DNA of 64,000 nt from NCBI GenBank assembly GCA_045863235.1, contig BTUM01000016.1:53527-117526 (forward strand), written 5' to 3'. Source of the DNA: Candidatus Xenobia bacterium (GTDB lineage: Bacteria; Vulcanimicrobiota; Xenobia; Xenobiales; QWHO01). A model generated the notes under the pieces. That model was not told the origin of the DNA and searched no databases. It saw only the letters and a program-made list of their open reading frames with translations. Of the stretch, positions 14,967 to 38,356 are shown one piece after another. A program made the position numbers and the translations under genes. Each line of letters opens with the position of its first letter. The first letter of the stretch is position 1.

Positions 14967-15962
14967 TCAGCAGCGAGCGCCAACCGCTCCCCGCGCTGGG
15001 CGCAACCGGACCATCACTCCGCCCACCTGCACCGCCTGGTCGCCCTCCACGATGCCGCTCCCGGTGCCCTCGATGCTCCACTCGCGGACCTTCTGGGCCT
15101 CCTTGTCGGCCTCTCGGAAGAGCTCCAACTGCGGTTGCCAGCGGTCCAGGATCTCGAGCTGCTTGTCCTGGTCATGGATGATGAGGACGGGCAGGATGGC
15201 CAGTCCGAGCGCCGCGATAGGGAACCCGATGGCCGGGTGGCCCGACCCCGCGATCAGCATCCCGATCCCGAAGGCCCAGGGCGACGCCGAGCCGATGCGA
15301 CCGAGCAGCGCGTCGCGCTGCTTGATCTCGAGGCGCTTGCGCTCCAGGGTCTTGTCGTCGGGACCTTTGAGCCGCTTGAGGTCCTTCTTCAGGAGCTCGC
15401 GCGCCGGTGAGGCTTCGGGCTTGTGCTCCGACTCGAGCACGGTCCGAGTCGCGCGCAGCAGGCTGCGCAGCTGGCCGAGCGTGGCCTCACCACCCAGCGA
15501 GACCGTGGGCGACGCGACCGGGCTCCCGGTGGCCGGCGAGAAGCTCCTGGCGTCGAGCTCCTCCTGCAGGGCTTTGTCCGCCTCCAGAGCCATCTCCCGG
15601 TCCACCTGTTCGACGACGGACCAGAGGCCCACTCCCATGGAGCCTGCGAGACACCCGAAGGAGGCGAGAGTGCCCAGCACCCCGTTCGGCTCTCGCGAGA
15701 TCAGGGTGACCAGCCCGGCCAGGAACGCTCCGCTCAAGAGGAGCTTGCCACCGAGCTTGTAGGTCGCCTTGCGGGCCTGGGAGCGGAGGTGTCGCTGCAC
15801 GTCCTGCACCGTGTCGCCCGGGTTCTTCTCCAGCACGTCGATGCGCTGCTTCACCTGACGGTAGGCGATGTCGGTGGCCGGGTTGGACAGGTGCGGCTCC
15901 AGGCGGGTGGCCCGCTGGCGAAGGTCCTCCAGAAGGTGGGACTTGGCGACCTGCACATGCAT
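14967..15962 (-). CDS. Hypothetical membrane protein with internal duplication and the shared C-terminal motif
   Basis: Start reassigned to ATG 15962 (MHVQVAK) from promoter geometry; two helical + hydrophobic-hairpin units; tail IVEGDQAVQVGGVMVRLR. Confidence 0.7.
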   Translation of the reverse strand: MHVQVAKSHLLEDLRQRATRLEPHLSNPATDIAYRQVKQRIDVLEKNPGDTVQDVQRHLRSQARKATYKLGGKLLLSGAFLAGLVTLISREPNGVLGTLASFGCLAGSMGVGLWSVVEQVDREMALEADKALQEELDARSFSPATGSPVASPTVSLGGEATLGQLRSLLRATRTVLESEHKPEASPARELLKKDLKRLKGPDDKTLERKRLEIKQRDALLGRIGSASPWAFGIGMLIAGSGHPAIGFPIAALGLAILPVLIIHDQDKQLEILDRWQPQLELFREADKEAQKVREWSIEGTGSGIVEGDQAVQVGGVMVRLRPARGAVGARC

Positions 15963-15970
15963 GGCGCCAC

Positions 15971-16003
15971 AGTCTGCACTCCGAGGCTGAAAAAAACCTG
16001 AAA
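15971..16003 (-). promoter_or_regulatory. TTTCAG-N5-TTTCAG promoter element, copy 2
   Basis: TTTCAG gtttt TTTCAG, N10, CAGACT, N8, ATG 15962. Confidence 0.72.
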
Positions 16004-16090
16004 TGGCCTGCCCGCCCACGCCAGAGTCCGACCAGGATCGCGCGAGCGCTGAACAGGACTCCAGCTCCCGCTCCTCCAACCACCACCCTC

Positions 16091-16726
16091 ATGGAAGGTT
16101 ACTACACCGAGCTTCTGGCCGCGTTCGTGCGGGGCAAGCTGGGCCTGGCAGGCGAAGCGGGCCTGGACGATCTCATGCAGCAGGCCCGAGCCCACGAGCT
16201 GCGCACCCACAAGTTCAAACGCTCGGCCGCGCTGCCCCGAGTGCGCAAAGTGTTGGGTGTGCTGCAGCAGCTACGACCGGCCAGCCTGCTCGACTTCGGC
16301 ACCGGGCGCGGGGTGTTCTTGTGGCCGCTGCTCGACGAGTTGCCCGAGCTCGCGGTGACGTGCCTTGACCTGCGCCCGGACCGCATCGAAGACTTGCAGG
16401 CGGTGTCCAGGGGCGGCATCGGACGGTTGACCGCTCGACAGGCTGACCTCGCGCGGCCGCTCGACTTTCCCGACCAGAGCTTCGACGTGGTGACGGCGCT
16501 GGAAGTGCTCGAGCACATGCCTGACCCTCTCCCGGCCGTGCGCGAGGCGGTCCGCGTTGCCCGCCAGGCCGTCATCGTCAGCGTGCCCTCGCAAGAAGAC
16601 GACAATCCCGAGCACTTGCGGCTGTACACGCAAGACTCCCTGCAGAAGCTGCTCTACCAGGGCGGGGCGAGCAAGGTGCGGGTGGAGTACGTGCTCAACC
16701 ACATGGTGGCGGTGGCCCGTGCATAA
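16091..16726 (+). CDS. Class I SAM-dependent methyltransferase
   Basis: LLDFGTGRG, FDVVTALEVLEHM, VIVSVP..PEH. Confidence 0.85.
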   Translation: MEGYYTELLAAFVRGKLGLAGEAGLDDLMQQARAHELRTHKFKRSAALPRVRKVLGVLQQLRPASLLDFGTGRGVFLWPLLDELPELAVTCLDLRPDRIEDLQAVSRGGIGRLTARQADLARPLDFPDQSFDVVTALEVLEHMPDPLPAVREAVRVARQAVIVSVPSQEDDNPEHLRLYTQDSLQKLLYQGGASKVRVEYVLNHMVAVARA

Positions 16727-17495
16727 GTATCCCCGCACCCACCACCTGGAGGGCTCGCGCCGCCAGCCCGGGGACGAAGAGCTCGAGGACGTGCCCTACA
16801 CGGCCGTGAGCGGCCGCCACCTGGTGGTGGAGGAGAAGCTCGACGGCGCCAACTGTGCCCTCAGCTTCGAGCCCGATGGCGAGCTCTTGCTGCAGAGCCG
16901 GGGGCACTACCTGACCGGAGGAGGCCGAGAACGCCATTTCGCCCTGCTGAAGACCTGGGCTGCCTGCCACCAGGCCAGGCTGTTCGAGCGTCTGAGGCAC
17001 CGCTACGTCGTCTACGGAGAGTGGCTCTACGCCAAGCACACCGTCTACTATGACCGCCTCCCCCACTACTTTCTCGAATTCGACGTGCTCGACACCGAGA
17101 CGGGCGTCTTCCTCTCGACGCCGCGTCGGCGCGAGCTGCTTGAGGGGCTGCCCGTCGTGTCGGTGCCGGTGCTGCACGAGGGCCAGGCTCCCTCTCTGAA
17201 ACAACTGATCGCGATGATCCGCCCCTCGCTCTACAAGTCGCCCGGCTGGCTCGAGAGCTTGAGCGAGCAGTGCGCCCAGCACGGGCTCGACCCCGAGCAA
17301 GCCGCTCAGGAGACCGATCCCGAAGACCTGAGCGAGGGGCTCTACCTCAAGGTCGAACAAGAGGGCCAGGTGCAGGCTCGCTACAAGCTGGTGCGGGCCA
17401 GCTTTCTCACCGCCGTGCTCGACTCGGGCAGCCACTGGCTGAGCCGGCCCATCCTGCCCAACCGCCTGGCCGACGGGGTGGATCTCTATGCTTGA
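16719..17495 (+). CDS. ATP-dependent RNA ligase family protein
   Basis: GTG start overlapping the methyltransferase; KYPRT.H, EEKLDGAN (motif I), YGEW, EFDV, EGLYLK, YKLV. Confidence 0.85.
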   Translation: MHKYPRTHHLEGSRRQPGDEELEDVPYTAVSGRHLVVEEKLDGANCALSFEPDGELLLQSRGHYLTGGGRERHFALLKTWAACHQARLFERLRHRYVVYGEWLYAKHTVYYDRLPHYFLEFDVLDTETGVFLSTPRRRELLEGLPVVSVPVLHEGQAPSLKQLIAMIRPSLYKSPGWLESLSEQCAQHGLDPEQAAQETDPEDLSEGLYLKVEQEGQVQARYKLVRASFLTAVLDSGSHWLSRPILPNRLADGVDLYA

Positions 17496-18591
17496 GCCGG
17501 TTCCCCGCCCTCCCCACTGGCAGGTGGACTGGGAAGCGCTGGACCGGGCCTGGCCTTTCCTCTGGCCCATGAAAGAGTGCCCCCAGGCCAGCGAATACCA
17601 CGGCGAGGGCAACGTCTGGATCCACACCCGCATGGTGTGCGAGCAGCTGGCTTCTCTGGCCCGCTGGCGCGAGCTGCCGGAAACCGAGCGCGAGCTGGTC
17701 TGGGCGGCGGCCCTGCTGCACGACGTGGCCAAGCCTGCCTGCACCCGGCCCGGACCGGACGGCCGGCTGACTTCGGCTGGTCACGCCCGCAAAGGGGCGG
17801 TGATGGCCCGCGCGCTCTTGTGGCGGCTGGGGGTGGCCTTCGAGCGGCGCGAGCTGGTGTGCGCGCTGATCCGCCACCATATGGTGCCGTTCTGGATCCT
17901 CGACCGCGACGACAGCCTGCGCCTCTTGCTGGAGGTCAGCCTGACAGCCCGCTGCGACCTGCTCTCGGTACTGGCCGAGGCCGACGCCCGGGGGCGCATC
18001 GCGGCCGACCAGCAGGAGCTGATCGAGGACACCTGGCTGTTTGCCGAGTTCGCCCGAGAGCACGGCTGTCTGAGCCAGCCCTACCCGTTCCCCAGCGAGC
18101 ACACGCGCTATGTCTACTTCCGCTCCCCCCAGCGCTCGCCCGGGATGGAGGCCTTTGAGGACACCCGCAGCCGGGTCACGGTGCTGAGCGGCCTGCCGGG
18201 AGCGGGCAAGGATACCTACGCCCGCAGGCTCTCGTTGCCCCAGGTCTCGCTGGACGCCATCCGGGCCGAACTCGGCGTCAAACCCACCGACGACCAGGGA
18301 CCGGTGGCCGAGCGGGCCCGCGAGCGGGCGCGAGAGTTCCTGCGCCGGGGGGAGCCGTTCGTGTGGAACGCCACCAATCTCAGCCGCGAGCAGCGCGAGC
18401 GCTGCCTGGGCTTGCTGGCTGATTACCGCGCCCGCGTGGAGCTGGTCTATTGCGAAGCCGAGCACGACGAGCTGATGCGCCGCAACGCCGAGCGCGAGCC
18501 GCCCTTCCCGGGAGCGGTTCTGGAGCGGCTCTTGGAGCGCTGGGAGGTGCCCGACCTGAGCGAGGCCCACCGCCTCGAGCTGGCCTTCTAA
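17488..18591 (+). CDS. HD phosphoesterase + P-loop polynucleotide kinase (HD-Pnk-like)
   Basis: YHGEGNVWIHT, LLHDVAK, GHA, HH, AD; then GLPGAGKDT, SLDAIR, WNATN. Confidence 0.85.
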   Translation: MLEPVPRPPHWQVDWEALDRAWPFLWPMKECPQASEYHGEGNVWIHTRMVCEQLASLARWRELPETERELVWAAALLHDVAKPACTRPGPDGRLTSAGHARKGAVMARALLWRLGVAFERRELVCALIRHHMVPFWILDRDDSLRLLLEVSLTARCDLLSVLAEADARGRIAADQQELIEDTWLFAEFAREHGCLSQPYPFPSEHTRYVYFRSPQRSPGMEAFEDTRSRVTVLSGLPGAGKDTYARRLSLPQVSLDAIRAELGVKPTDDQGPVAERARERAREFLRRGEPFVWNATNLSREQRERCLGLLADYRARVELVYCEAEHDELMRRNAEREPPFPGAVLERLLERWEVPDLSEAHRLELAF

Positions 18592-18630
18592 GTCCCGCGA
18601 TGAATTGTTAAAAGGTCAGCGCGGGGCGCC

Positions 18631-21378
18631 TTAAGCCCGGTTCCTGCGCCGCACCAGCGCTCCCCCGAAGGCCACGAAGGAGCTGCTCTCCAGCACTCCC
18701 GAGCCGGCTTGCTCGCTGACCACCCCGTGTTCGCGCAGGGCCTGCTCGACGTCGCCGCTCCCCCGAGCGGTGCGCCAGATCTCTAGTCCGCGCTGAAAGC
18801 GCTCGGCGTCGCTCTTCTCGCGCAAAAGGCCGGCCAGCTCGACCCGGGTCAGAATGCCCTGCAGCGTGTGCCACTGCTCCTCGGGCTGGCCGGCGCCCAC
18901 CAGCTCGGTGAAAGCGGCCATCGCCTCAGAGCGGTGCTGGGGACCGAAGCGCTCCACCAGCTCCCCGCCCCAACCGCTCGCCCCCTCAGCCCAGCTCTCC
19001 ACGACCTCGTCGGAGACATAGCCCTGAGTCTGCTCGATGCGCGCCAGGATCGCGCAGGCTCGCTCGGGCTCGACTCCCTGGCGCAAGCGCTCCCGGTCGA
19101 GCTGCTCGAAGTGGTCGTGGGCATTGCTCCTCACCTGGTAGATCGTCGGCTGGCGCGACTCGGGAGCGGCGAGGGCGCGCAGCCGGTCCTCCAGCTCAGG
19201 GGCCCCCTGGGCCAGAGGCAGGGCCAGCACGAAATCGGCCAGATGCTCGTTGGAGAGCTTCTCCAGTGACTCCTGGCCGGTCAGCCGGCTGCCCAGCCAC
19301 AGTCGCACCCGGGCCCTGTCGGCCTCGCTCAGATCGTTCAGCATCGCCAGAGCGGCCCGCAAAGGGGGAAGCTCGAAGGGGTCGCGCTGCTCCTGGGTAT
19401 TGCCCCGATGCACCGTATGCTGCACGCAGATGGAGGCGGCCGCCAGCCGCTCTTGCAGGTCGCCCGACTGCAGGCCGGCCATGGCCTGCTCGAGCACCCG
19501 GTTGCGAGCCTCTTCGACCAGCGGCTCGAACCAGGCCTGGGAATAAGGGAGGCTGGCCTGGAGCAGCTCCCCCAGGCGGGCTTTCGTCTCCGGGGTGAGC
19601 GGGATGGAGGCCAGCACGGCCAGGTGATTGCGCGTCCGGGCATCGCACTCGATCAGACTTCCCGCCCCCGCAAGACCGGAAGCGATGGGGTCGAGCAGGC
19701 GCTTCTCCAGGGCCGGGTCGGGCTCGGGAGCGAGCAGGGCAAAGCAATCGGCCGACCCCTCCCAGCAATTCTTCGCACCGGGAATGAACGACTGCTCCAC
19801 CTTGTCCGAATCGAGCAGGTGAGCCAGCAAGGCCTCGCGATAGGGAACCAGCTGACCCTTCGGGTCGGCCAGCATCAGCCCGTCCAGGTCCAGGCTGCGG
19901 GCCAGCCTCAGAGCCGGAGCGGTAAAGGTGTAGCGGGTCAGGTTCAGCTCGCCCTGTTTGGCCCCCTGCGGCACCATCCAGCTGGTCAGCCAGTCCTTTT
20001 GCAGGGGGTCGGGCTTCCAGCCGGCCTTCAGGGCCGACTCGAAGATGGCGAAGTGGGCCGTATCGGGGTAGCTCGTCTGGCGCTGCCTCAACGTCTCGGC
20101 CGCGATCGCCGGGGCCAGTTGGGGCTGTTTCCTCATCAGGGTGAGCAGGTTGCGCACGCCCCAATTGAGCCCGTCGTAGCTGGTGTTGTTGAGGATCGCG
20201 CCCACCTGGGCTGTCACCTGCTCGGGGTTGGGGGGCGAAATCTCCCACAGGGCCGAGCAGAAGTCCAGGATGCCGCGGCCCTCGATGCCCAGTGCCTCGG
20301 CCCGGTCGGGCACCTGCTCGAGGGCCTGGCGGTGGGGCTGAAACAGCTGGTCCAGCCGAGGACTCTTGCGCGAATCAGAGATAAGCCGCGCCATGGCCGA
20401 CAGGTCCTCGTCGGAGGGGCGTCCGGCGGTAAGCTCCTCGACCAGCGCACGAGCGACCTCAGCGGCCTGCTCGGGCATCGTTTCGGCCAGCACCTCCAGC
20501 CGCTTGACTCCCTTGCGCTCGTTGAGAAGGGGGATCTGCTCGAGGATCTGGCGAGCCGCGGTCCTGACCTCGGCCGACGTGGAGGGCGGCGCTGCCTCGA
20601 GCTCGAGCCGAAGACCCCGCACCGGGACGGGGCCCTCGAGCAGGGTAGCCTCAAGCTCTCCCTCGACCTGACCGTAGCGGCGCAGGAGGTCGCAAGCCCG
20701 GGCGGCCAGGGAGAGATCCAGCTCGACCGGCTCCTTCTCGCGTAGGTCAGGAGCAAGCTCTTCCCGGCTGCGTCGCAGGTGCTTATGGGCCAGCAGCATC
20801 AGGCTGCGCAGGGCCGCCGGCGTGGCGGGCTCCTTCTGCAAAGCGCTTTCGAGCCGATCCAGGGTCAGCTGGACGCGCTCGGCGTCAAAGCCCGAGATGC
20901 GGGCCTCCCAATCGATTCGCTGGCTCGCTCCCTCGACCGGTCCGTAGAACACGCACAGCTCCTCCAACCGGTTGCCCCCGTGGACATTGGACAGGGTCCG
21001 CCGGGCCAGGTAGCGGGTGACCGGGTCGGGGCTTTCGGCCCACTTGTGCGCCCCGGTGCCGCTGACGATCTCGGGCATGGCGCTGGCTCGCTCGGCCAGC
21101 CGCAGCTTGAGGGGCCAGAGGTCGGCGGGGGGTTGCTCGGGGGGCAGGGGCTGTTCAGCTTGCGAGGCTGGGGGCTCGGCAGTGGGGAGAGGAGCGGGTG
21201 CGGAGGGCCCCGGACGCGGGCCTCCCAGTTCGGTCTGGTCCAGCGGGTCGGCCTCGAAAGCCTGGCCAGGCCGGGCGGCCGTCTGGGGACGGGCGGCGGC
21301 AAAGTTTGAGCTCAAGGCACGCAGCTCGGGGGTCACTGTCAGGGGAGTTCTGCCCGGGGCGGGTTGTTTCCCCTCCAA
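18631..21378 (-). CDS. Large helical hypothetical protein with Pro-rich N-terminus and the shared C-terminal motif
   Basis: 915 aa ORF 18 nt downstream of the propeller gene; tail VLESSSFVAFGGALVRRR. Start uncertain. Confidence 0.7.
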   Translation of the reverse strand: MEGKQPAPGRTPLTVTPELRALSSNFAAARPQTAARPGQAFEADPLDQTELGGPRPGPSAPAPLPTAEPPASQAEQPLPPEQPPADLWPLKLRLAERASAMPEIVSGTGAHKWAESPDPVTRYLARRTLSNVHGGNRLEELCVFYGPVEGASQRIDWEARISGFDAERVQLTLDRLESALQKEPATPAALRSLMLLAHKHLRRSREELAPDLREKEPVELDLSLAARACDLLRRYGQVEGELEATLLEGPVPVRGLRLELEAAPPSTSAEVRTAARQILEQIPLLNERKGVKRLEVLAETMPEQAAEVARALVEELTAGRPSDEDLSAMARLISDSRKSPRLDQLFQPHRQALEQVPDRAEALGIEGRGILDFCSALWEISPPNPEQVTAQVGAILNNTSYDGLNWGVRNLLTLMRKQPQLAPAIAAETLRQRQTSYPDTAHFAIFESALKAGWKPDPLQKDWLTSWMVPQGAKQGELNLTRYTFTAPALRLARSLDLDGLMLADPKGQLVPYREALLAHLLDSDKVEQSFIPGAKNCWEGSADCFALLAPEPDPALEKRLLDPIASGLAGAGSLIECDARTRNHLAVLASIPLTPETKARLGELLQASLPYSQAWFEPLVEEARNRVLEQAMAGLQSGDLQERLAAASICVQHTVHRGNTQEQRDPFELPPLRAALAMLNDLSEADRARVRLWLGSRLTGQESLEKLSNEHLADFVLALPLAQGAPELEDRLRALAAPESRQPTIYQVRSNAHDHFEQLDRERLRQGVEPERACAILARIEQTQGYVSDEVVESWAEGASGWGGELVERFGPQHRSEAMAAFTELVGAGQPEEQWHTLQGILTRVELAGLLREKSDAERFQRGLEIWRTARGSGDVEQALREHGVVSEQAGSGVLESSSFVAFGGALVRRRNRA

Positions 21379-21396
21379 CCCGAGTTCGCGCCTCGG

Positions 21397-22530
21397 TCAG
21401 CCGGGTGCGAGCCTCTTCTTGAGTCGTACCGAGCCGAAGCGGACGCTGCCAGCATCCTCGGTCACGGCCGAGGAGGAGTCCTCGGGAACCACTCGCAGCT
21501 CGAGGCGGCTCACGTCCCCGTTGCGCCGGGTGACGTAGAGCCAGCCCTCGGGCCCCCGGGCGGCGCCCACGATGTCCGAGGGAACCTCCAGCTCCTCGCC
21601 CAGGCAGATCAGGCGCGGCGCGCTCTTGCTCCCGGTGATCAGAGCTCCGTCCGACCCCATCGTGTTGACCTCCAGAGTGGGATCCACCGGCAGCTTCTCC
21701 ACCAGGCCCGGCAGCACGCCCCGCTCGCTCCCATTCGCATCGAAGAGGTGGACCGCGCCTCCAGCCAGTGCCAGAGCGATCGAGCCGGGAAGGCCCAGCC
21801 CCGGCTGGCCGGGCAGACTGAACTCGCCCAGGGCAACGTCCATCTCCACGCGACCCGTGGCCGGCTGGAGAGCCACCAGGTGGTGGCGCATCCCCGGCTC
21901 CATGGTGATGAAGTAGTAACGCCCATCGGGACCGAGCCGGGGAGGACGCCCGGCGATTCCGGGCAGATCTTTCAAGCGCTTGCTCTTGAAGAGCAGGGAG
22001 GTAGGGTCGTAGCGCACCACGCGCCCCTGGTTACCGACCAGCAGCACCGACTTGCCCGGTCCCGGGAGCACGAAGAAACTGTGAGGGGTTCCCAGCGCGT
22101 CGTGAATCCTGGCCTTCTCATTGCCGTCGGGGTCGAAGGCCAGCAGCATGCATCCTCGGGTCGAGACGTAGATGCGCTCGCCCTGCACCACCGGCGCGTT
22201 CATCGGCTCAAGGAGAGGTCGGGCCCAGAGCAGCTTACCCTCGGGGCTGATCCGGTGCAGGTTGCGACCGCCCAGGACGTAGACCGAGCCGTCGGGCGCA
22301 GGCGTCGGGGGGTGCTCGAGCGGGCCTTTCAGCCGGCAGCTCCACACCGGTGCTCCGCTCGCATCCAGGGCCTGCAGGTTGCCCGAGCGGTCGCCCGCGT
22401 AGACCCGGTCGGCCGCCAGGACGGGAGGCAGATCCACCGGCTCGTCCGCCAGCCGGGCCAGGGTGGTCAGCACGGGCCGGGGGGTCCCAAACAGGGTCGC
22501 AGCCGCAGTGCTCGAGGAGACGGTTGCCAT
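21397..22530 (-). CDS. PQQ-like (BamB-type) beta-propeller protein with the shared C-terminal motif
   Basis: Start reassigned to ATG 22530 (MATVSS); repeats VYAG..G.L.ALD..G...W and P.PAPDGSVYV; tail VTEDAGSVRFGSVRLKKR. Confidence 0.75.
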   Translation of the reverse strand: MATVSSSTAAATLFGTPRPVLTTLARLADEPVDLPPVLAADRVYAGDRSGNLQALDASGAPVWSCRLKGPLEHPPTPAPDGSVYVLGGRNLHRISPEGKLLWARPLLEPMNAPVVQGERIYVSTRGCMLLAFDPDGNEKARIHDALGTPHSFFVLPGPGKSVLLVGNQGRVVRYDPTSLLFKSKRLKDLPGIAGRPPRLGPDGRYYFITMEPGMRHHLVALQPATGRVEMDVALGEFSLPGQPGLGLPGSIALALAGGAVHLFDANGSERGVLPGLVEKLPVDPTLEVNTMGSDGALITGSKSAPRLICLGEELEVPSDIVGAARGPEGWLYVTRRNGDVSRLELRVVPEDSSSAVTEDAGSVRFGSVRLKKRLAPG

Positions 22531-22538
22531 ACTCCACC

Positions 22539-22571
22539 AGTATGCGCGGGCCCGCTGAAGAGAAGCTGAAC
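22539..22571 (-). promoter_or_regulatory. TTTCAG-N5-TTTCAG promoter element, copy 3
   Basis: GTTCAG cttct CTTCAG, N10, CATACT, N8, ATG 22530. Confidence 0.68.
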
Positions 22572-22613
22572 CCCGCCCGCACCGGCTTCTCCACCTGCGG
22601 CCAACGAGGGAAT

Positions 22614-23708: not shown

Positions 23709-23823
23709 GAAGGGACGGTTCGAGATGTTGGCCGCACATCTTCCTTTGATTCGATGAGCCAGAGTCTCCGGGCCCACTCGCTGGTTGTCCGAGCCCACTC
23801 ACTCGGCTTACGACTAGATTCTG

Positions 23824-23845
23824 TGCTATAATATTTCAGATTATA
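23824..23845 (+). promoter_or_regulatory. Extended -10 promoter overlapped by an inverted repeat
   Basis: TGC-TATAAT, with TATAAT-N7-ATTATA forming a palindrome in an AT-rich patch; AGGAAGGAG RBS follows. Confidence 0.55.
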
Positions 23846-23867
23846 AACCAGGAAGGAGCCCGGCCCG

Positions 23868-27385: not shown

Positions 27386-28515
27386 CAAGCCGAGACCCGC
27401 TCGCCGATCCAGGCGGCCAGCTGGCCCGGCGTCATGGCGCCCACATGGGCGCCCACGTCCACCAGCCGGCCGGCCAGCTCCTTGTCATAGATCGGCTCGG
27501 CTCCCTCGTCCAGGGCGGCCAGCCCCAGCACCGTGGTACCCTGCTCGCACAGGCCTTTGACGGTGCGCACCAGGCGCTGGGCGTCTCCCCCCTCGAAGAA
27601 GTCGGTGATGAGCGCGATGATGGTGCGACGAGGGTTCTCCACCAGGCCGGCAGCAAAGTCCACCGCTTTGGCGATGTCGGTGCCCCCGCCCAGCTGCACC
27701 CGCATCAACAGCTCGACCGGGTCGGTGCAGTCGGCTGTCAGATCCACCACCTCGGTGGAGAAGACCGCCAGGTGCGTCTTCAGCATCGGCACCGACCAGA
27801 AGCAGGCGGCCGTGATGGCCGAGTGGATCACCGAGCCCAGCATGCTGCCCGACTGATCCACCAGCAGGATCAGCTGCCAGGCGGCCCGGTGGCGACGGCT
27901 GCGCTGGAAGAAGTAGGCCTTCTCGAGGTAGAGCTTGCGCGTCTCGGGGTCGTAATGCTTGAGGTTGGCCCGCACCGTGCGCTCGAGGTCGAGGTCGCGG
28001 GAGAACTTGAAGGGGGACGAGCGGGCGTTGCGACGCGGGCCCGAGAAGCTTTTTTGCACTTCGCGGGCCAGCTTCTCCATCAGCTCCTCGACCACTTTGC
28101 GCACCAGCTCGCGGGCCAGCTCGAGCACCTCGGGGTTCATCAGGTGGCGGGTCTTGAGCACCGCCTGCAGCAGCGTCTGGTTGGGCTGGACCCGCTTCAA
28201 GACCTCGGGATTGGTCACCACCTCGTCGATCTGGAAGCGCTCCACGGCGTCCTTCTCCAGCCGCTCGATCGTCTCGCGGGGAAACAGCGTGTGGACCTGG
28301 TTGATCCAGTCGGCCACCGAGAGCTGGGGCGCCTCCTGACCGCCCTTGCGCCCCGCCATGATGTCCCGCGACTTCAGGCCCGGGTCGCGGTTATAGAGCC
28401 AGGACAGAGCCGCATCGCAGGCCCCCTCCTCGCCCTGCAGGCAGCAACCGAGCTGGGGCTGGGAGGCCTCGCCCAGCACCAGGCGCCAGCGTACCAGGCC
28501 GTCCTCATAAGCCAT
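27385..28515 (-). CDS. VWA (CoxE-like) domain protein (YehP-like)
   Basis: Start ATG 28515 (MAYEDGLVRWRLVLG); MIDAS DQSGSM, GGGTDI, ITDFFEG. Confidence 0.85.
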   Translation of the reverse strand: MAYEDGLVRWRLVLGEASQPQLGCCLQGEEGACDAALSWLYNRDPGLKSRDIMAGRKGGQEAPQLSVADWINQVHTLFPRETIERLEKDAVERFQIDEVVTNPEVLKRVQPNQTLLQAVLKTRHLMNPEVLELARELVRKVVEELMEKLAREVQKSFSGPRRNARSSPFKFSRDLDLERTVRANLKHYDPETRKLYLEKAYFFQRSRRHRAAWQLILLVDQSGSMLGSVIHSAITAACFWSVPMLKTHLAVFSTEVVDLTADCTDPVELLMRVQLGGGTDIAKAVDFAAGLVENPRRTIIALITDFFEGGDAQRLVRTVKGLCEQGTTVLGLAALDEGAEPIYDKELAGRLVDVGAHVGAMTPGQLAAWIGERVSA

Positions 28516-30652
28516 AGCGCTCGATGGTCCTTTCCAACTCGGCGTCGAGCTGCATGCCGGCCGCCACCAGGGCGGGGTCCACCGCGTTGCGCAACAGCTC
28601 GAAGTTGGACTCCAGCCCGTAGAGCCGGGCCACGATGGCGGCCACGGCCTGGCGTTCGCGGGGAGGGAAGGCGGAAAAGGCCAGGCGCAGGCCCGGCAGG
28701 GCGCGCAGAAAGTCGGTTCGGTCCAGCCCCCTGAGCAGCTGATCGACCAGCCTGAGCAGACCCTCGGCCCGCTGCACCTCCTCGCGGGCCAGGGCAAAGA
28801 GGCCGGCCAGGAAGTCTCCCAGGGCCTCGGGGGGATGCAGGGCGCGCACGGCTTGCTCGGCCTCCTCCTCGCCGGGAACCAGCTCGAGCGACCAGAGGTA
28901 GCCCAGAGCGGCGCCCTGGCACACTCGGGGTGCGTCCTTGAGCCGCCTTCGCATGACCCCTTCAGCCAGCTCGCGCGCAAGCTCGAGCTCGCGGCCCAGC
29001 TTGTGCATGTCGCGCAGGGTGACCACCGCCTTGACGATGCCGGCGGTGGCGCCGTCCAGACCTTCGAAGAGCCACAGCCCGCGGGCGAAACCGGCCTGGA
29101 GGATGACTGGAAAGTCGGGTCCCAACTTCTGACGGTAGAGCCCGAAGAGGGTGCTCAGGGCACCGCCCAGGAGCTCCAGGTCGACCTCTGCCCCCAGCGC
29201 CCGGGCCACCTCCTGCACCAGCTCCCGGCCCAGCTCGGTGAGGCCGGCCCTCACGGCCAGGGCCAGGCAGGCCGCCAGGCCGACCGCATCCGTCTCGCCC
29301 GAGAGGGCCTGGCGCAGCACCCCGATGGCCGCCTGCTCGAGGTCGGAGCCGTAGGCCGAGGCCTCCACCAGGGCCGCCTCCAGGTCGAGGCTCTCCTGCA
29401 GCACCCAGGTCTCCTCCACCAGCTCCTCTGCCTTCAGGTGAAAGCCCGGCAGCCGCAGCAGGGCCAGGCGGCGCAGAAAGTAGCTTCTCTCCGTGCCCAC
29501 CTCGACCGTCACCTGGCGGGCCGGCCGGGTGGGCTTCAGCTCGAGCGCCTCCAGGGCGGCCAGCACCTCGTCCACCAGCGGCGGACGGGGCGTGCCGCCG
29601 GCCAGCTTGCCCACCCGCTTGCCCGAGAAGGCTGCCACCAGCTCCACCAGCACCGGGTCGGTGCCCGCCCCGAGTGTCCCCCGCCGGCTCCAGGGCAGCT
29701 CGCTCTGCAGGGCCTCCTTGACCAGAGCGCCCACCAGGCCGTCCAGCAGATCGGTGCGCATCGGGAAGTCGTGACCACGCAGCCGGGCCAGGCCGTGGGC
29801 CAGCGTGCTGGCCGCCACCAGGTCGGCTGAGGAGAGGGCCAGCTTCTTGTCGCGCAGGCGGTGGGTCACGTCGTGCAGGGCCCGGCGGGCGGCCTCGCCG
29901 GCCCCCGCCTCCCAGACGTGCTGGTAGTAGCCGGGCGAGGGCATACCGGCGTCGTAGCCCTGAAAACTGTCCAGCCGGTGGAAGCTGAAAGGCACCAGAT
30001 AGCTGCCGGTATCGCTGGCCGGCTCGAGCTCGGGCCACTCGGATCGGGGAAGGGCCTCTTCCAAGAAGGGCGCGTGGTAGCCTCCGCACACGGCCACCAC
30101 GCGGTCTTCATAGGTATGCCGGGCCCAGCCCAGGCAGGCGGCCATGTAGGCCTCGCGCTCGGCATCCTCGGGGCTGACGCTGGTGCGAATGGTTTGAAAA
30201 TAGCGCCGGAGGCGGTCTTCCAGGTCGTCTCCAGGATGTTCGAAGAGGTGGTCCCAGAGGCTGTCCGGGTCGTCGAAGCCCAGCTCGCGAGCCAGCTCGT
30301 CCTGGCCGGGCTCGCGTCGGTCGGCGTAACGGTTGGTGCGCTCGCGCATGGATTTGTGCCAGGCCGGCAGGTCCATGAAGCGCACATCGGCCCCCAGCTC
30401 GCGTCCCACCGTCAGGGCCACCCACTCGGGCGAGTAGGCGCAGAACGGCGTCCAGGCAGCGCACTCGCCCTTCTGGAAGCTGAACACGGCCAGGGGTAGT
30501 TGGTGGCCCAGGTGCAGCTCGTCCAGGCGGCCGTTGAAGTCGGACGGCCCTTCGATCAGCACGCAGGCCGGTCTGACCGCGCGCAGCACCCGCTCGACCA
30601 GACGGGCGCAGGCGGGGCTGTGATGGCGGATACCGAGGACCCTGGTCGCCAT
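28505..30652 (-). CDS. DUF5682 / YehM-like protein
   Basis: GIRHHSPACA, LIEGP.D, PFCAYSPEWVA, REAYMA, VCGGYH, GYDAGMPSPGYY. Confidence 0.8.
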   Translation of the reverse strand: MATRVLGIRHHSPACARLVERVLRAVRPACVLIEGPSDFNGRLDELHLGHQLPLAVFSFQKGECAAWTPFCAYSPEWVALTVGRELGADVRFMDLPAWHKSMRERTNRYADRREPGQDELARELGFDDPDSLWDHLFEHPGDDLEDRLRRYFQTIRTSVSPEDAEREAYMAACLGWARHTYEDRVVAVCGGYHAPFLEEALPRSEWPELEPASDTGSYLVPFSFHRLDSFQGYDAGMPSPGYYQHVWEAGAGEAARRALHDVTHRLRDKKLALSSADLVAASTLAHGLARLRGHDFPMRTDLLDGLVGALVKEALQSELPWSRRGTLGAGTDPVLVELVAAFSGKRVGKLAGGTPRPPLVDEVLAALEALELKPTRPARQVTVEVGTERSYFLRRLALLRLPGFHLKAEELVEETWVLQESLDLEAALVEASAYGSDLEQAAIGVLRQALSGETDAVGLAACLALAVRAGLTELGRELVQEVARALGAEVDLELLGGALSTLFGLYRQKLGPDFPVILQAGFARGLWLFEGLDGATAGIVKAVVTLRDMHKLGRELELARELAEGVMRRRLKDAPRVCQGAALGYLWSLELVPGEEEAEQAVRALHPPEALGDFLAGLFALAREEVQRAEGLLRLVDQLLRGLDRTDFLRALPGLRLAFSAFPPRERQAVAAIVARLYGLESNFELLRNAVDPALVAAGMQLDAELERTIERYGL

Positions 30653-30712
30653 CGTGGCGCCTAGAGGCCCGGCCGGAAAGGCCGGGCCGATCTACATCTT
30701 GTGGCTAGGAGC

Positions 30713-30788
30713 CGGCCGCCTACACAACATCTTGTGGAGACGGAGGTTTCCTCCGACTCCACAAGGGGGTTTGCGGCCGGACTCCTAG
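30713..30788. repeat. Left copy of ~70-bp hairpin element containing an NrdR-box-like 16-mer
   Basis: ACACAACATCTTGTGG at 30722-30737; stem CTTGTGGAG-A-CGGAGG-TTT-CCTCCG-A-CTCCACAAG; inverted homologue at 32861-32928. Confidence 0.7.
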
Positions 30789-32824: not shown

Positions 32825-32860
32825 CCCGGGATGCCTTCCTCGGGGGCCGGTCCAGCCCTG

Positions 32861-32928
32861 CTAGAGGTCGTACCGCAAACCCCTTGTGGGGAGGGAACCT
32901 CCGCCACCACAAGATGTTGTAGGCGGCC
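32861..32928. repeat. Right, inverted copy of the ~70-bp hairpin element
   Basis: Reverse complement GGCCGCCTACAACATCTTGTGG..GGAGGTTCCCTCC..CCACAAGGGGTTTGCGG..CTAG aligns with 30713-30788. Confidence 0.7.
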
Positions 32929-33102
32929 CGACTTCTCTGGATTATGCTTCACAGCCAACTGCGCGCGACTGAAGGGGGAAACGGTCGGAATCGCCAAAGG
33001 AGTTCGCCACGCCTTCGGGCAGACGGGGGGTGCTCAGTGAAAATCTTCTTCATCCCGGGCGGGGCTCCAGGAGCGCTGACGCTCTGAGATCAGGGCGCGG
33101 GG

Positions 33103-33942
33103 TCAGCCACCCCGCCGCTTGAGCACCACGCCTCCCACCGCCACACCGCGACCGAGCTGGCCGATCGAGCTGCCCTGGGGCTCATGCTGCTCTTTCAGGG
33201 CCAGCACCTCCTGGAGCGAGCGCATCGCCCCCCCTGCAATCATGGTGTTGAGCTGGTTGCCCCCTTCGTGCTCTTCCCAGAAATTGTAGTTCGAGAACCC
33301 TTTGGTGAGGAAGTCGAGGCTCTTGCGGGTGCAGTCGAGCTGCTGCTCGGGGTCAAAGCGCGCCACCAGGTTGGCCAGTGCCCGGACGTGGGCGAAGCCA
33401 GGCTGCTCGGGGTGCCACTGGTCCGACTCCACCGAGGCGGCCATGGTCCGACCCAGCTGTACCAGCTGGCTGGGGGCGAGGTCCTGGTCCAGAGCCTCCA
33501 TGGCCAGGTCCACCGGACGACCGGCGCAGTAACGGGCCTGGGTCTGCTCGCGGCTCTGGCGCACCAGGCAGGGCCCCTCGGTCTGGGGCAATTGCGACTC
33601 ATCGCCCAGGATCGCCAGGGCCAGAGAAGCCACCGGTCGGTCCTGCAGGGCACCAAACAGAAGGTTGGCCGCCTGCAGGCGAAGCTCCGGCTCGTGGGCG
33701 GGGATCTGCCTCACCAACTCGCGCCCCCGCGTCAGCATGGCCTCGCCCGACATGGTCTTCAGTTCTTCCACCGCCGCCAGGTTGCGGGCTCGTTCGGCCC
33801 GCTGGGCAGCGATGTAGGCCTGCGCCTCGGCCAGCGCCTTGTCGTAGTCCGACTGCCCGGACCGGTAGGAATCGCCCGAGGAGCTGGCCCGGGCGGGCAG
33901 ACTGAGCTGGTTGTGAGTGAAGACATGGGCGCCGATCCGCAT
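33103..33942 (-). CDS. Hypothetical helical protein with the shared C-terminal motif
   Basis: MRIG.. low-complexity N-terminus; tail IGQLGRGVAVGGVVLKRR. Confidence 0.7.
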   Translation of the reverse strand: MRIGAHVFTHNQLSLPARASSSGDSYRSGQSDYDKALAEAQAYIAAQRAERARNLAAVEELKTMSGEAMLTRGRELVRQIPAHEPELRLQAANLLFGALQDRPVASLALAILGDESQLPQTEGPCLVRQSREQTQARYCAGRPVDLAMEALDQDLAPSQLVQLGRTMAASVESDQWHPEQPGFAHVRALANLVARFDPEQQLDCTRKSLDFLTKGFSNYNFWEEHEGGNQLNTMIAGGAMRSLQEVLALKEQHEPQGSSIGQLGRGVAVGGVVLKRRGG

Positions 33943-33948
33943 GACTTG

Positions 33949-33981
33949 TGCTTAGCAGTGGACCCTGAAAGAAAGCTGATC
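33949..33981 (-). promoter_or_regulatory. TTTCAG-N5-TTTCAG promoter element, copy 4
   Basis: GATCAG ctttc TTTCAG, N10, TAAGCA, N6, ATG 33942. Confidence 0.62.
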
Positions 33982-33992
33982 GGCTGTTCTGA

Positions 33993-34043
33993 AATGGGGC
34001 GCCCATTCAGGGCGGGTCCGTGTCCTGAATAGGGCGCCCCATT
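33993..34043. repeat. Long intergenic palindrome (REP-like or terminator-like)
   Basis: AATGGGGCGCCC-ATTCAGG..CCTGAAT-A-GGGCGCCCCATT. Confidence 0.6.
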
Positions 34044-34076
34044 CGGGCGCGTCCGTGGGCTTGCCTGAAGCCAGAC

Positions 34077-35903: not shown

Positions 35904-36039
35904 TGTTTCCCCCTTCTGTTTGTTGCTGCAAGGATCATACGATAGAGCAGCGTCCGCCTGGCACATTCAGGCGAGCGGGGTTGAGTGCCGCCTGGGAAGC
36001 GGGGCGAGGGAGATTACCAGGCAGATCAATTGATCTAAT

Positions 36040-37125
36040 TCAGGGCAGGGCGTGCCGGGCGTCGAAGAACGCCTTCCAGAGCGGCCCGCGGCGCTTGGAA
36101 ATACGCTGCTCGAGGTAGCGCCGCAGGCGCTTGACGTCCTCGGCGTTGTCCTTGATGGCCGTTCCCAGGATGCACTCCATCAGGTCCTCGGGGTTGGCGG
36201 ACCGGCCGCCCAGGTAGTGGGCCCGGATGCCCACGGCGTGGGCCACCGAGACCGCCTCGGCGGTGGACATGGCGGTGCTGAGGCGCTCCAGAGCGTCGCC
36301 CTCGGGGGTCTTGCCTTCGCGCAACTCGCGGAACGTGGTCACCAGGATTTCCAGCAGGTCGCGCGGGGGTGCCTGGGGCACCCCCGAGCGCTGCAGGAGC
36401 TGAGCCGTCTCGCGCTCGACCAGCTCCAGCTCCACCTCACGGTCTGCGATGGGGAACACGGTTTCGAAGTTGAAGCGGCGCTTGAGAGCGGCGCTCATCT
36501 CGTTGGTGCCCCGGTCGCGGGTGTTGGCCGTGGCCAGCAGGTTGAAGCCCTCGCGGGCGTAGAGCCGGGTTTCCTCGCCCTCGAGCTCGGGCAGGAACAG
36601 CACCCGGTCGGACAACACCGAAAGCAGCGAATCCTGAATCTCGCTCGGGCAGCGAGTGATCTCCTCGAAGCGCACCACTTTGCCGTGCAGCATGCCGAGA
36701 TAGAGCGGAGCCGGCACCAGCGCCTTGCGGCTGGGCCCCTCGGCCAGCAGCAGGGCGTAGTTCCAGCCGTACTTGATCTGGTCTTCGGTGGTGGCGGCGC
36801 TGCCCTGGATGGTCAGGGTGGACTCGCCGCTGACGGCCGCGGCCAGAAGCTCGGACAAGAACGACTTGGCCGTGCCCGGCTCGCCCACGAGCAAGAGCCC
36901 GCGGTTGGTGGCCAGGGCCACCATGGCCCGATCCACCAGCGAGGGGTTGCCCACGAACTTGGGCCGGATCTTCTGTTTGGGATCGCCCAGAATGAAGCTG
37001 CGCACCGCCCGGGGCGAGAGGGCCCAACCGGGCGGGCGCGGGTCTTTGTCGCTCTTTCTCAGCCGGGCCAGCTCGTCGGCGTAGACCAGCTCGGCCGGAG
37101 GGCGCTGCAGGCTATCGGTGGACAC
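36040..37125 (-). CDS. MoxR-like AAA+ ATPase (YehL-like, AAA_5)
   Basis: Probable GTG start at 37125; GEPGTAKS, YGWNYALLLA, RFEEITR, TANTRDRGTNEMSAALKRRFNF. Confidence 0.85.
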   Translation of the reverse strand: MSTDSLQRPPAELVYADELARLRKSDKDPRPPGWALSPRAVRSFILGDPKQKIRPKFVGNPSLVDRAMVALATNRGLLLVGEPGTAKSFLSELLAAAVSGESTLTIQGSAATTEDQIKYGWNYALLLAEGPSRKALVPAPLYLGMLHGKVVRFEEITRCPSEIQDSLLSVLSDRVLFLPELEGEETRLYAREGFNLLATANTRDRGTNEMSAALKRRFNFETVFPIADREVELELVERETAQLLQRSGVPQAPPRDLLEILVTTFRELREGKTPEGDALERLSTAMSTAEAVSVAHAVGIRAHYLGGRSANPEDLMECILGTAIKDNAEDVKRLRRYLEQRISKRRGPLWKAFFDARHALP

Positions 37126-37164
37126 GAGGGCCGCGTTCGACCGCCCGGGGTGGGTTCCCTGGGT

Positions 37165-37197
37165 TGTCAGGCTCCTTTCAGCCGTCGGGCTTACACT
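37165..37197 (+). promoter_or_regulatory. TTTCAG-N5-TTTCAG promoter element, copy 5
   Basis: TGTCAG gctcc TTTCAG, N10, TACACT, N7, ATG 37205. Confidence 0.7.
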
Positions 37198-37204
37198 GTT
37201 CCCT

Positions 37205-38356
37205 ATGCTGCGACCCGTGTACGCCGCCTCGGCCAACCCGCTCTACGCGCTGCAATCTCGGCGCGAGAACGAGGTGGTGGCCTGGCGCGAGAAGTTTGAG
37301 GGCGACTCCTGCCGCCACCCCTCTGGCTCGGTGGTGGTGAGCGACGGCCAGCGCCTGATCAAGCTCTCCGAGACGGGCCATAGCGAGTGGAAGGTGGACA
37401 ACGGCAAGTGGACTCCTTTCCGCCCGGCCGCCTTGCCCAACGGCGGCGCGGTCTGGTCGCCCGGCGGGAAGGGCATCACTTTCTACACACCCGGGGGCGC
37501 GGTGCAGAAAGTTTGGGGGGGCGAGCACCAGACCCAGACCACCGTCCCCACCGTGGCCCCCGATGGCACCGCTTACGTCTGCCTGCGCACCGAGGACGGC
37601 TCGGTGCTGGCCGCCCTGCGAAGTGACCAGGACGAGCCTGTGTGGGTAGCCAGACTCCCCTTCTTCGGCTCCGGGCCGTGCCTGCCGGATGGGCAGGGCG
37701 GCGTGATCTTCCGCACCGACGACGACCGGGTGCTCTCCCTCGATAAGGACGGCCAGGAGCGCTGGTGCCAGAAGCTGCCCGTGCGGGTCGACGGCCAGCT
37801 GGCTCTGGGCCCGAAGGGCGAGATCTACATCGGCTCGGAGAAGGGCCAGGTCTACCGTCTGGCCCCCGAGGACGGCGCTGTCACCCCCTTCTTCAAAGCC
37901 CGCAAGGCGGTCAGGGCGGCGCCCACGGTGACCGAGGAGGGCCGGGTCTACCTCACCAGCTTCGACCACAACCTCTACGCCGTCAGCCCCGAGGGCAAGG
38001 AGTTGTGGCACCACGACTGCGAGGACCTGGTGGACAGCTCGCCGGCCGTGCTCGATGACGAGACCGTGGTGGTAGGCAGCAACGCTGGCAAGGTCTGGGG
38101 CCTGTCTCCCGAGGGCGAGGAGCGCTGGTCGCAGGAAGTCGATTTCTGGGTCGAGGGCGCCATCCTGAGCGACGGACGCACGGCCTACGTGGCCGGCAAG
38201 GACGAGGTGGTGGCTCTGCGCCCGGGTGGCATCGCGGCCGACCTGGACGACTTTGCGATCGCGCCCGCCAACCAGGTCGGCGAGCACGGGGGCAAGGTGG
38301 TGGTGGGCGGGGTGCGTCTGCCACGCTGCACCCGGCGTGGAACAGGCTGCGACTGA
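37205..38356 (+). CDS. PQQ-like beta-propeller protein with the shared C-terminal motif
   Basis: Start reassigned to ATG 37205; repeats PTVAPDGTAYV, IYIGSEKGQVY, VYLTSFDHNLYAV..G.E.W; tail VGEHGGKVVVGGVRLPRC. Confidence 0.8.
   Translation: MLRPVYAASANPLYALQSRRENEVVAWREKFEGDSCRHPSGSVVVSDGQRLIKLSETGHSEWKVDNGKWTPFRPAALPNGGAVWSPGGKGITFYTPGGAVQKVWGGEHQTQTTVPTVAPDGTAYVCLRTEDGSVLAALRSDQDEPVWVARLPFFGSGPCLPDGQGGVIFRTDDDRVLSLDKDGQERWCQKLPVRVDGQLALGPKGEIYIGSEKGQVYRLAPEDGAVTPFFKARKAVRAAPTVTEEGRVYLTSFDHNLYAVSPEGKELWHHDCEDLVDSSPAVLDDETVVVGSNAGKVWGLSPEGEERWSQEVDFWVEGAILSDGRTAYVAGKDEVVALRPGGIAADLDDFAIAPANQVGEHGGKVVVGGVRLPRCTRRGTGCD

Follow-up and report, generated by a model that had tools for sequence, protein, structure and literature searches.

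A promoter box and a C-terminal tag in Candidatus Xenobia mark candidate substrates of a flagellin-less type III export machine

Why do unrelated proteins, encoded far apart in one bacterial genome, share a promoter box in front of their genes and a short tag at their C-termini? The question arises from a 64,000-nt stretch of Candidatus Xenobia DNA (the window: contig C16, positions 53527-117526), part of an 8.36-Mb genome that is 97.6% complete. By name, its nearest relatives belong to Eremiobacterota/Vulcanimicrobiota and include Ca. Xenobia and Ca. Bruticola. From the letters of the window alone, an original prediction had described a TTTCAG box (here box A) and a protein tag that occur together, and had proposed a dispersed, co-regulated arsenal delivered by a Sec-independent route, with its apparatus elsewhere. 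We find that box and tag are strongly associated across the genome, and that the genome encodes an export machine of the flagellar kind without flagellin. Probably, the box-driven cargo is exported by this machine and delivered into or against another cell.

All counts rest on 7211 genes called with a dicodon model, the start codons of which are uncertain. Signal-peptide calls come from a crude hydropathy rule applied to these home-made gene starts, and for counts by transcription unit 83 of 3796 units at contig edges were dropped. Comparisons within the class refer to genomes of Ca. Xenobia relatives (44 class genomes; 24 good class genomes) and those within the phylum to 151 genomes. Statements taken from the literature refer to the accessible portions of the papers cited.

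What is box A? Its consensus is TTTCAG-N5-TTTCAG-N10-TAnnCT, with the ATG mostly 6-9 nt past the TAnnCT element. The TTTCAG pair is the strongest direct repeat of the non-coding DNA in this genome: 56 pairs are spaced by 11 bp, whereas no other spacing between 5 and 60 is seen more than 3 times. The single hexamer is found 41 times in the window, against 17.6 expected. A box model trained blind to the tags returns 400 sites at 17 bits or more; of the sites with at least 20 bits, 335 of 362 are non-coding, and a reversed control (4.8 of 16.7 Mb) gave one. Box A is the promoter of 374 dispersed genes, 119 of them tagged and 255 untagged. The start codon lies within 10 nt of the -10 element in 250 of these 374, including 111 of the 119 boxed and tagged genes, which points to leaderless mRNAs. 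Activator boxes of the OmpR/PhoB and SARP types have a direct-repeat geometry. Like these, box A consists of two hexamers 11 bp apart that end 10 bp before the -10 element and replace the -35 element. It differs from them in its sequence, TTTCAG, and in the size of its regulon, near 400 sites. No PhoU match was found in the 97.6% complete genome (13 of 14 control genomes have one), nor any phosphate transporter among the 257 boxed or tagged proteins whose Pfam scans were read for it. The exact pair is enriched over control in families f1, f2 and f5 of the class and scarce in the small-genome family f3. In three public RNA runs (contigs only; four public runs in all), boxed and unboxed genes were covered alike, in 30, 30 and 21 of 30 bins, so that these runs are uninformative as to co-expression.

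Does the box predict the tag? At a cut-off of 16 bits, 119 of 177 tagged genes are boxed, compared with 255 of 6651 others (odds ratio 51, p 4e-113). Counted by transcription unit, the figures are 123 of 171 and 250 of 3542 (odds ratio 34), and among signal-peptide-free genes that stand first in their unit, 119 of 160 tagged versus 203 of 2352 untagged. The association is stable from 12 to 20 bits. It is not inflated by paralogues: with a single gene taken from each of 110 families, 74% of tagged genes are boxed, and of the 80 tagged singletons, 60 belong to boxed units. The tagged genes are spread over 83 contigs, and 80 have no paralogue in the genome. The dispersed set proposed from the window is thereby borne out genome-wide. 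Among relatives, the box precedes 14 of 25 tag-bearing open reading frames (ORFs) at 24 hand-picked loci and none in reversed controls; these ORFs are mostly orthologues from a congener, and two rows are cut at the edge of the locus. Both tagged ORFs of family f5, at 23-28% identity, are boxed, and two loci of genus g9 have no box.

The tag itself follows the motif G.GV.E...V.VGGV.V.+R behind a helix and a linker. A profile built from the six window proteins converged on this motif and matches 177 proteins (E<0.01, no more than 40 residues from the end). Its 30-column core gives 177 matches of at least 10 bits, of which 172 lie in the last 40 residues, and has no match on reversed proteins. 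A free C-terminus is not required, as the tag is internal in 5 proteins and occurs twice in two proteins of other genomes. From a 64-row alignment, AlphaFold2 models a helix and three short strands at a pLDDT (predicted local distance difference test) of 85, so that the predicted fold is a three-strand beta-meander. The tag has no Pfam or Atlas match and a best PDB sequence match at E 0.84, and it is short enough for relatives to escape detection; a fold search gave a best Z of 3.9 and no Foldseek match at E 0.001. Among 1.84 billion proteins the profile found 8 matches, 7 of the same kind and one a leucine-rich-repeat artefact. Each of 5 genomes of the own genus carries more than 100 tags, with the best 150 scored per genome. 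Elsewhere in the class we count 16 and 28 in two f5 genomes and 3-6 in four f3 genomes. On contig C67 (10508-11226), a tagged gene is immediately followed by a 40-codon ORF that is nearly all tag and may be left over from tag shuffling.

The window contains six tagged genes, all with the tag at the C-terminus (named by their start positions and strand: 15962-, 22530-, 21378-, 33942-, 37205+, 59010+). Four of their five transcription units begin at box A, as originally described: 15962, the 22530+21378 pair, 33942 and 37205; 59010 does not. Eight sites of at least 11 bits lie before 15962, 22530, 33942, 37205, 5159, 42673, 56353 and 56469, and at that cut-off the model finds no further boxed gene in the window. 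The features are as follows.

5120..5136, + strand: box A before the MGDG-synthase-like glycosyltransferase gene, 28.5 bits
5159..6424, + strand: boxed, untagged MGDG-synthase-like glycosyltransferase, domain from residue 50 (Pfam MGDG_synth)
14967..15962, - strand: tagged 331-aa protein with two hydrophobic stretches and helical linkers, family not found
14997..15056, - strand: tag of the 15962 gene, predicted as a three-strand beta-meander after a helix
15987..16003, - strand: box A, TTTCAG-N5-TTTCAG, with the -10 element CAGACT 10 nt downstream and the ATG 8 nt further, 35.6 bits
18631..21378, - strand: tagged 915-aa protein, family not found, 18 nt behind the 22530 gene, tag at 18640-18699, start uncertain
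21397..22530, - strand: tagged PQQ-type beta-propeller protein of 377 aa, tag at 21409-21468 (PQQ_2, E 4e-12)
22555..22571, - strand: box A before the 22530+21378 pair, 25.9 bits
33103..33942, - strand: tagged 279-aa protein, family not found, tag at 33109-33168
33965..33981, - strand: box A before 33942, 25.4 bits
37165..37181, + strand: box A before 37205, 29.7 bits
37205..38356, + strand: tagged PQQ-type beta-propeller protein of 383 aa, tag at 38273-38332 (PQQ_2, E 7e-33)
41960..42673, - strand: boxed, untagged M48 peptidase, domain from residue 77 (Pfam Peptidase_M48)
42699..42715, - strand: box A before the M48 peptidase gene, 31.1 bits
55118..56353, - strand: boxed, untagged 411-aa protein, family not found
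56379..56395, - strand, and 56402..56418, + strand: two back-to-back box A sites between divergent genes, 30.6 and 29.8 bits
56469..58925, + strand: boxed, untagged 818-aa protein with TPR and a fatty-acid alpha-dioxygenase-like haem enzyme (Pfam An_peroxidase; PDB E 5e-111)
58928..58945, + strand: weak match to a second box (box B, below) upstream of 59010, 13.5 bits, near noise level and possibly due to chance
59010..60953, + strand: tagged 647-aa protein without box A, tag at 60852-60911, CAAAAT 6 nt before the ATG

The enzyme labels given to the boxed, untagged genes from the letters alone agree with the database matches: glycosyltransferase and M48 peptidase through Pfam, and the dioxygenase through both Pfam An_peroxidase and a PDB alpha-dioxygenase (E 5e-111). 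The label "catalase-like" for 56353 is not supported, as the protein has no match in Pfam, NCBIfam or PDB sequences. In cyanobacteria, pairs of a dioxygenase and a catalase-related partner occur; such a pairing is not confirmed for 56353 and 56469.

Two other gene groups share the window. Positions 25628-30652 and 36040-37125 encode SWIM, VWA_CoxE, DUF5682 and MoxR-type AAA proteins, a MoxR-VWA system that is split by inserted genes, two of them boxed cargo genes. Overlapping genes for a methyltransferase, an RNA ligase and an HD + AAA_33 kinase at 16091-18591 resemble an RNA-repair operon.

What kinds of protein does the box drive? Pfam scans (cut-offs 1e-2, 1e-6 and 1e-8) covered 112 of the 177 tagged and 181 of the 255 boxed, untagged proteins. 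The 112 tagged proteins comprise 23 beta-propellers, 3 MAM/CUB proteins, 86 without a family and no enzyme. Among 106 tagged and 177 boxed, untagged proteins in these scans, enzyme families account for 0 and 51. These enzymes include acyltransferases, glycerophosphodiesterases, lipid desaturases, caleosin, P450, amylases and trehalase, as well as nucleases, deaminases, peptidases, phosphatases, an ADP-dependent kinase and an AdoMet decarboxylase. A central hydrophobic hairpin is found in 39 of 57 tagged proteins of 100-350 aa, compared with 32 of 139 boxed-only and 106 of 1806 other proteins of that size; among longer tagged proteins it occurs in 9 of 119. The tag likely marks a non-enzymatic subclass of membrane- and scaffold-type cargo. 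The notion of a single tagged arsenal therefore needs to be divided: the link between box and tag stands, but only about one boxed protein in three carries the tag, and the tagged ones are non-enzymatic. Contig C7 (90747-93224) encodes, with four paralogues, a five-member boxed family that includes YidD-like domains, one of them fused to a C11 peptidase.

Is there a common export feature, if it is not the tag? The absence of signal peptides noted in the window proteins extends to the genome: a signal-peptide-like start is found in 0 of 119 boxed and tagged proteins, 19 of 255 boxed, untagged proteins and 886 of 3700 others. The N-termini of boxed proteins are rich in Ser, Pro and Ala and favor Ile or Val at position 3. 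A classifier trained on the N-termini of untagged boxed genes reaches a cross-validated area under the curve (AUC) of 0.83; for tagged boxed genes the AUC is 0.88, and for 41 tagged but unboxed genes 0.81. Type III substrates of P. syringae show three N-terminal patterns (PMC3338616). Counting Ile, Leu and Val only, all three are present in 68 of 374 boxed proteins versus 136 of 3318 others, and two of them in 177 of 374 boxed versus 22 of 98 unboxed leaderless genes (p 6e-6). The common export feature is more likely to be the N-terminus than the tag, as judged from sequence.

Which machine could read such N-termini? The export machine lies elsewhere in the genome, as had been supposed from the window, and offers a candidate Sec-independent route. 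One full type III export gate is encoded on contig C27 (60720-79219), with Pfam matches for FlhA, FlhB, FliPQR, FliF, FliH-I-J and the C-ring, in the order flgB flgC fliE fliF fliG fliG fliH fliI fliJ, a lytic transglycosylase gene, fliK, a 271-aa FlgE/G-like gene, fliM fliN fliN fliO fliP fliQ fliQ fliR flhB flhA. Contig C74 adds flgF, flgG, flgJ, fliA and a short flhB-like gene, and ends inside fliA. The proteins pass flagellar cut-offs (FlhA 809 vs 772, FlhB 387 vs 349, FliP 254 vs 217, FliI clade 2 647 vs 630, FliF 160 vs 130) and miss those of injectisome (Sct) proteins (SctV 609 vs 692, SctN 595 vs 605, SctJ 61 vs 162, SctU 351 vs 358). The SctR equivalog is likewise missed (189 vs 209), and the broader EscR subfamily model is passed (204 vs 179).

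Flagellin, hook cap, junctions, motor and L/P rings are not found. Flagellin (PF00669) has no match in the genome, with the control positive in 4 of 14, and tblastn with the relatives' FliC, FliD (part), FlgD, FlgK, FlgL, FlgM, FliW, FlgA, MotA, FlgH and FlgI gave no match. As to a stator, the relatives' MotB matches a partial OmpA-type region only, and the single MotA_ExbB match adjoins ExbD/TonB-like genes. Three secretin matches belong to a type II system, a type IV pilus and an unrelated context; none lies in the export locus. Other secretion systems were sought with one marker each: VipB of the type VI secretion system (T6SS) in 0 of 44 genomes, VirB4 of the type IV secretion system and RcpC of Tad in none, and the gp19 tube of extracellular contractile injection systems (eCIS) in 1 of 44, not the own genome (its control was silent). 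The type II and type IV pilus routes, for which secretins are present, need signal peptides.

Could this simply be a flagellum in decay? FliP and FliF are present in 24 of 24 good class genomes and flagellin in 6 of 24. In all five flagellated relatives tested there is a second full FlhB; second copies of FliF and FlhA also occur in flagellated relatives, with FlgE, FliC and Mot genes in separate loci. A FliP tree (41 rows, Xenobia-related only, midpoint root) places 37 rows of the flagellin-less type in one clade (support 100/98) that largely follows the families; apart from it stand three FliPs of flagellar loci and one unassigned copy from genome G004, where long branches meet. The flagellin-less machine thus appears to be a separate, vertically inherited second set and not a decayed sole flagellum. 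A basal body shared between flagellum and new filament was rejected, given the second FlhB, FliF and FlhA of flagellated relatives. Incomplete assembly is an unlikely cause of the missing flagellin, with 18 of 24 good genomes lacking it and all having FliP.

Several further copies of machine parts were noted. Five proteins consist of the FlhA cytoplasmic domain (FlhA-C) only (C80:28012-29436, C3:26973-28175, C1:377631-378854, C106:14866-16857 and C107:13658-15829), one of them fused to a FliG-like N-terminus. Extra FlhA-C matches occur in all 36 class genomes searched, with up to 19 per genome, and their presence does not track the tag; it is possible that they are soluble sorting adaptors. 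A stand-alone second FliF/YscJ-like gene with box B upstream lies far from the export locus (C9:5642-7024), and many relatives have similar copies. Orphan, fast-evolving FliPs at L149:9895-10686 (genome G010) and L154:10058-10876 (genome G009) lie outside flagellar loci and within the flagellin-less clade; in this genus, g3, the 81-aa gene described next was not found.

Behind flhA stand a conserved 104-aa gene and, in three identical copies, a gene for an 81-aa, Gln/Met-rich protein; this order is kept class-wide. The 81-aa protein is present in 38 of 44 class genomes and in 41 of 151 phylum genomes (3 marginal). The three tandem copies (C27:55986-57051) differ in their promoters, which are box B, neither box, and box A. 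Five more paralogues were found (C69:19357, C78:33076, C3:179378, C74:12551 and C27:54348-55769), one of which forms the C-terminal domain of a 473-aa protein. The nearest Atlas clusters with a family assignment are HrpA-pilin (23-24% of members) and HrpE-like, at 0.88-0.91, which provides a lead only. Outside the class, among 20 selected genomes, the tag occurs in 3 of 10 with the 81-aa gene and in 0 of 10 without a clear copy; no examined genome without the 81-aa gene has a clear tag. Relatives of the 81-aa protein also turn up in records labeled Acidobacteriota (L046:10001-10198 and L050:10001-10135; Bryobacterales, Blastocatellia); no export gene lies closer to them than 10 kb. Machine and box appear to be old, and the tag old too, yet expanded in the own genus.

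How is the machine itself controlled? The idea that apparatus operons would carry box A did not hold, apart from one pilin-like copy. A second element, box B, has the consensus GTTAACA-N4-GTTAAC with a spacing of 11 bp and 563 sites of at least 13 bits versus 105 in a reversed control. Its core, TTAA-N7-TTAAC, resembles the CtrA box. The 473-aa paralogue, the first of the 81-aa copies, flgB and short flgE are all preceded by box B. Its sites include C27:69615-69631, 79436-79452 and 57128-57144 and about 450 others, and many of the genes behind them have cargo-like N-termini. In 9 of 10 relatives a site of at least 15 bits lies before short flgE, with one reversed control as high. The N-terminal signature is found in 77 of 243 box B genes versus 251 of 3037 others, and box B precedes 0 of 124 boxed and tagged units. 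These data suggest two tiers, with apparatus and early cargo under box B and late cargo under box A. Of 26 winged-helix candidates none is boxed, and a class survey singled none out as the regulator.

How might these parts work together? A winged-helix activator would bind the 11-bp-spaced repeats at the place of the -35 element and switch on the set, mostly as leaderless mRNAs, after box B has driven the apparatus operons earlier. Signal-peptide-free N-termini rich in Ser, Pro and Ala would feed the proteins to the FlhA/FlhB/FliPQR gate, from which they would leave via the rod and a filament built of the 81-aa pilin-like protein; the receiving cell would probably be one that touches or encloses the bacterium. 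There, the untagged enzymes may mobilize lipids, storage sugars and nucleotides of the target cell, and the tagged hairpin and propeller proteins may remodel the membrane interface. Caleosin, alpha-dioxygenase, trehalase and Inc-like hairpins make us lean towards a microbial eukaryote as the target; the lytic transglycosylase and the bacterial-type salvage enzymes would fit bacterial prey. The related Ca. Eudoremicrobiaceae have been proposed to be predatory and are enriched in eukaryote fractions (PMC9259500). For the tag, the leading guess, tentative and by analogy, is a handle through which the protein would dock on a chaperone or on the gate, because flagellar chaperones, which themselves dock on FlhA-C, bind the C-termini of their substrates (PMC8527033). 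Almost as likely, in our view, the tag would serve in assembly or anchoring once the protein has been exported.

A number of observations weigh against export and delivery by this machine. Boxed-gene starts were chosen by a rule differing from that for controls, a possible bias in every N-terminal comparison. Some boxed genes are clearly not cargo (a sigma factor, MFS and citrate transporters, PilZ proteins), and the 19 boxed, untagged proteins with signal-peptide-like starts do not fit. FlgB, FlgC and short FlgE of the machine itself fall below the threshold of the classifier, so that "type III substrate" alone does not describe the N-terminal signature. A blanket N-terminal extension of boxed enzymes was not found: the median is +1 residue for 67 pairs versus 0 for 181, a test confounded because many unboxed paralogues have the same N-termini. 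Of the extra N-terminal segments originally described, what survives is that several boxed enzymes duplicate housekeeping copies and have 38-75 additional residues. The 81-aa protein has no Pfam, NCBIfam or PDB match and is modeled as one long helix, not as a needle hairpin. Box A is absent from the apparatus operons, with only one of the three tandem 81-aa copies having it. Family f2, with both box and machine, has 0-1 marginal tags in 16 genomes. No L/P ring or locus-linked secretin for passage through the outer membrane was found, and no translocon, chaperone or regulator was recognized; as for a chaperone, CesT had no match (its control was silent too), and no small partner is recurrently co-transcribed with tagged genes.

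Could the same regulon and machine instead place the cargo on the surface of the producing cell or shed it into the medium, with the tag as a surface-anchoring or polymerizing module? No translocon or tip complex was recognized, tagged beta-propellers and MAM/CUB domains are typical of surface proteins, and the internal and doubled tags show that no free C-terminus is needed. However, many of the enzymes (acyltransferases, ADP-dependent kinase, P450, AdoMet decarboxylase, deaminases) depend on substrates or cofactors of the cytoplasm, and the proteins that combine a hairpin with coiled coils look like the Inc proteins of chlamydiae, which go into a membrane derived from the host (PMC3048545). 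We regard such release as unlikely.

Alternatively, the box might run an internal developmental or stress programme, for instance storage-lipid and membrane remodeling in resting cells, in which the proteins stay inside, the tag docks on an internal structure, and the N-terminal signature stems from leaderless translation and fast evolution. The regulators, transporters and lipid-droplet-type enzymes such as caleosin in the boxed set, the null result for N-terminal extension and an apparatus outside box A control would all agree with this. Yet the N-terminal pattern is far rarer in unboxed leaderless genes (the 22 of 98 given above), several boxed enzymes are extended duplicates of housekeeping copies, 80 tagged genes lack a paralogue as in an arms-race arsenal, and a conserved export machine without flagellin needs substrates. 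An internal programme is, in our judgment, quite unlikely.

A different exit for the cargo (type I or II secretion, vesicles or an undescribed tag-reading system), with some other task for the flagellin-less machine, is improbable: the ranges do differ (the machine is present in 24 of 24 good class genomes, and only the own genus exceeds 100 tags), a type II system is present and the marker searches left out type I, but type II needs signal peptides, which are absent from 119 of 119 boxed and tagged proteins, T6SS, eCIS, VirB4 and Tad markers were not found, no clear tag was found in a genome without the 81-aa gene, and untagged boxed proteins have the same N-terminal signature.

Delivery by the flagellin-less machine remains the reading that we favor. 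Its fullest form would be a second injectisome made from a duplicated flagellum, with the rod kept, filament and motor dropped, an own pilin gained and a two-tier regulon, sending several hundred effectors into prey or host, with Inc-like membrane effectors sorted, in flagellar fashion, by way of the C-terminal beta-meander. This form we put forward tentatively, at less than an even chance.

Searches of the literature within reach, which excludes most subscription papers, showed no description of the Xenobia system, box or tag. The main text of a 2026 flagellar survey, in its accessible portion, does not name the phylum (PMC13277936), and the accessible part of a Xenobia paper makes no mention of secretion (PMC11484240).

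Why does this matter? The step from flagellum to injectisome is thought to have happened once, and Xenobia offers a direct test of an independent second delivery machine. Across an entire uncultured lineage, an export system of the flagellar kind but without a filament is retained, either next to a flagellum or in place of one. One box and one tag list several hundred candidate substrates, where endosymbiont basal bodies have no known cargo, and yield a catalogue of uncharacterized membrane-hairpin and propeller proteins with a possible new C-terminal sorting signal. They also open a first way to study, at the level of mechanism, the predatory or host-associated way of life that has been proposed for these bacteria.

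How does the system compare with those already known? Like an injectisome of the Hrp type with its HrpA pilus, it combines a type III gate and ATPase with a small, putatively pilin-like subunit that is modeled as helical, and it has dispersed, signal-peptide-free proteins under one promoter box with an enrichment of P. syringae-type N-termini. The effector regulons under hrp and PIP boxes may be a parallel to box A. Unlike an injectisome, it passes flagellar and not Sct cut-offs, keeps FlgB/C/F/G, FliE/G/M/N/O/K, FlgJ and FliA, and has no locus-linked secretin; no counterpart was found for the C-terminal tag. Tagged proteins resemble chlamydial Incs, many of them mutually unrelated, in having a two-helix hydrophobic hairpin and coiled coils, but they show no sequence match to that family, and no C-terminal tag is common to Incs in the accessible part of the source (PMC3048545). 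The chaperones FlgN, FliS and FliT, which recognize substrate C-termini and dock on FlhA-C (PMC8527033), provide a model for the tag; they are helical and bind disordered C-termini, whereas the Xenobia tag is predicted to be beta.

Flagellar basal bodies with their export gate but without a filament, for which protein secretion has been proposed, are kept by Buchnera aphidicola (PMC8109811) and by Ca. Sneabacter namystus (10.1101/719211). The Xenobia machine likewise retains the flagellar export gate without a filament. Those of Buchnera and Sneabacter are remnants of a sole flagellum in tiny endosymbiont genomes, with no identified cargo; Xenobia has a large genome, a complete flagellum alongside in relatives, a new repeated subunit and hundreds of candidate substrates. 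The secretin-less type III system of Myxococcales also occurs in a large-genome, possibly predatory bacterium (PMC3459982), but belongs to the lineage of non-flagellar type III secretion systems (NF-T3SSs), whereas the Xenobia system is flagellar by sequence and keeps rod genes. According to Abby and Rocha, NF-T3SSs are monophyletic and injectisomes have a single origin, whereas exaptation of flagellar systems for secretion occurred several times (PMC3459982). The Xenobia system looks like a derivation separate from that of the NF-T3SSs. We class it as a variant of type III secretion, and not as a member of the injectisome family.

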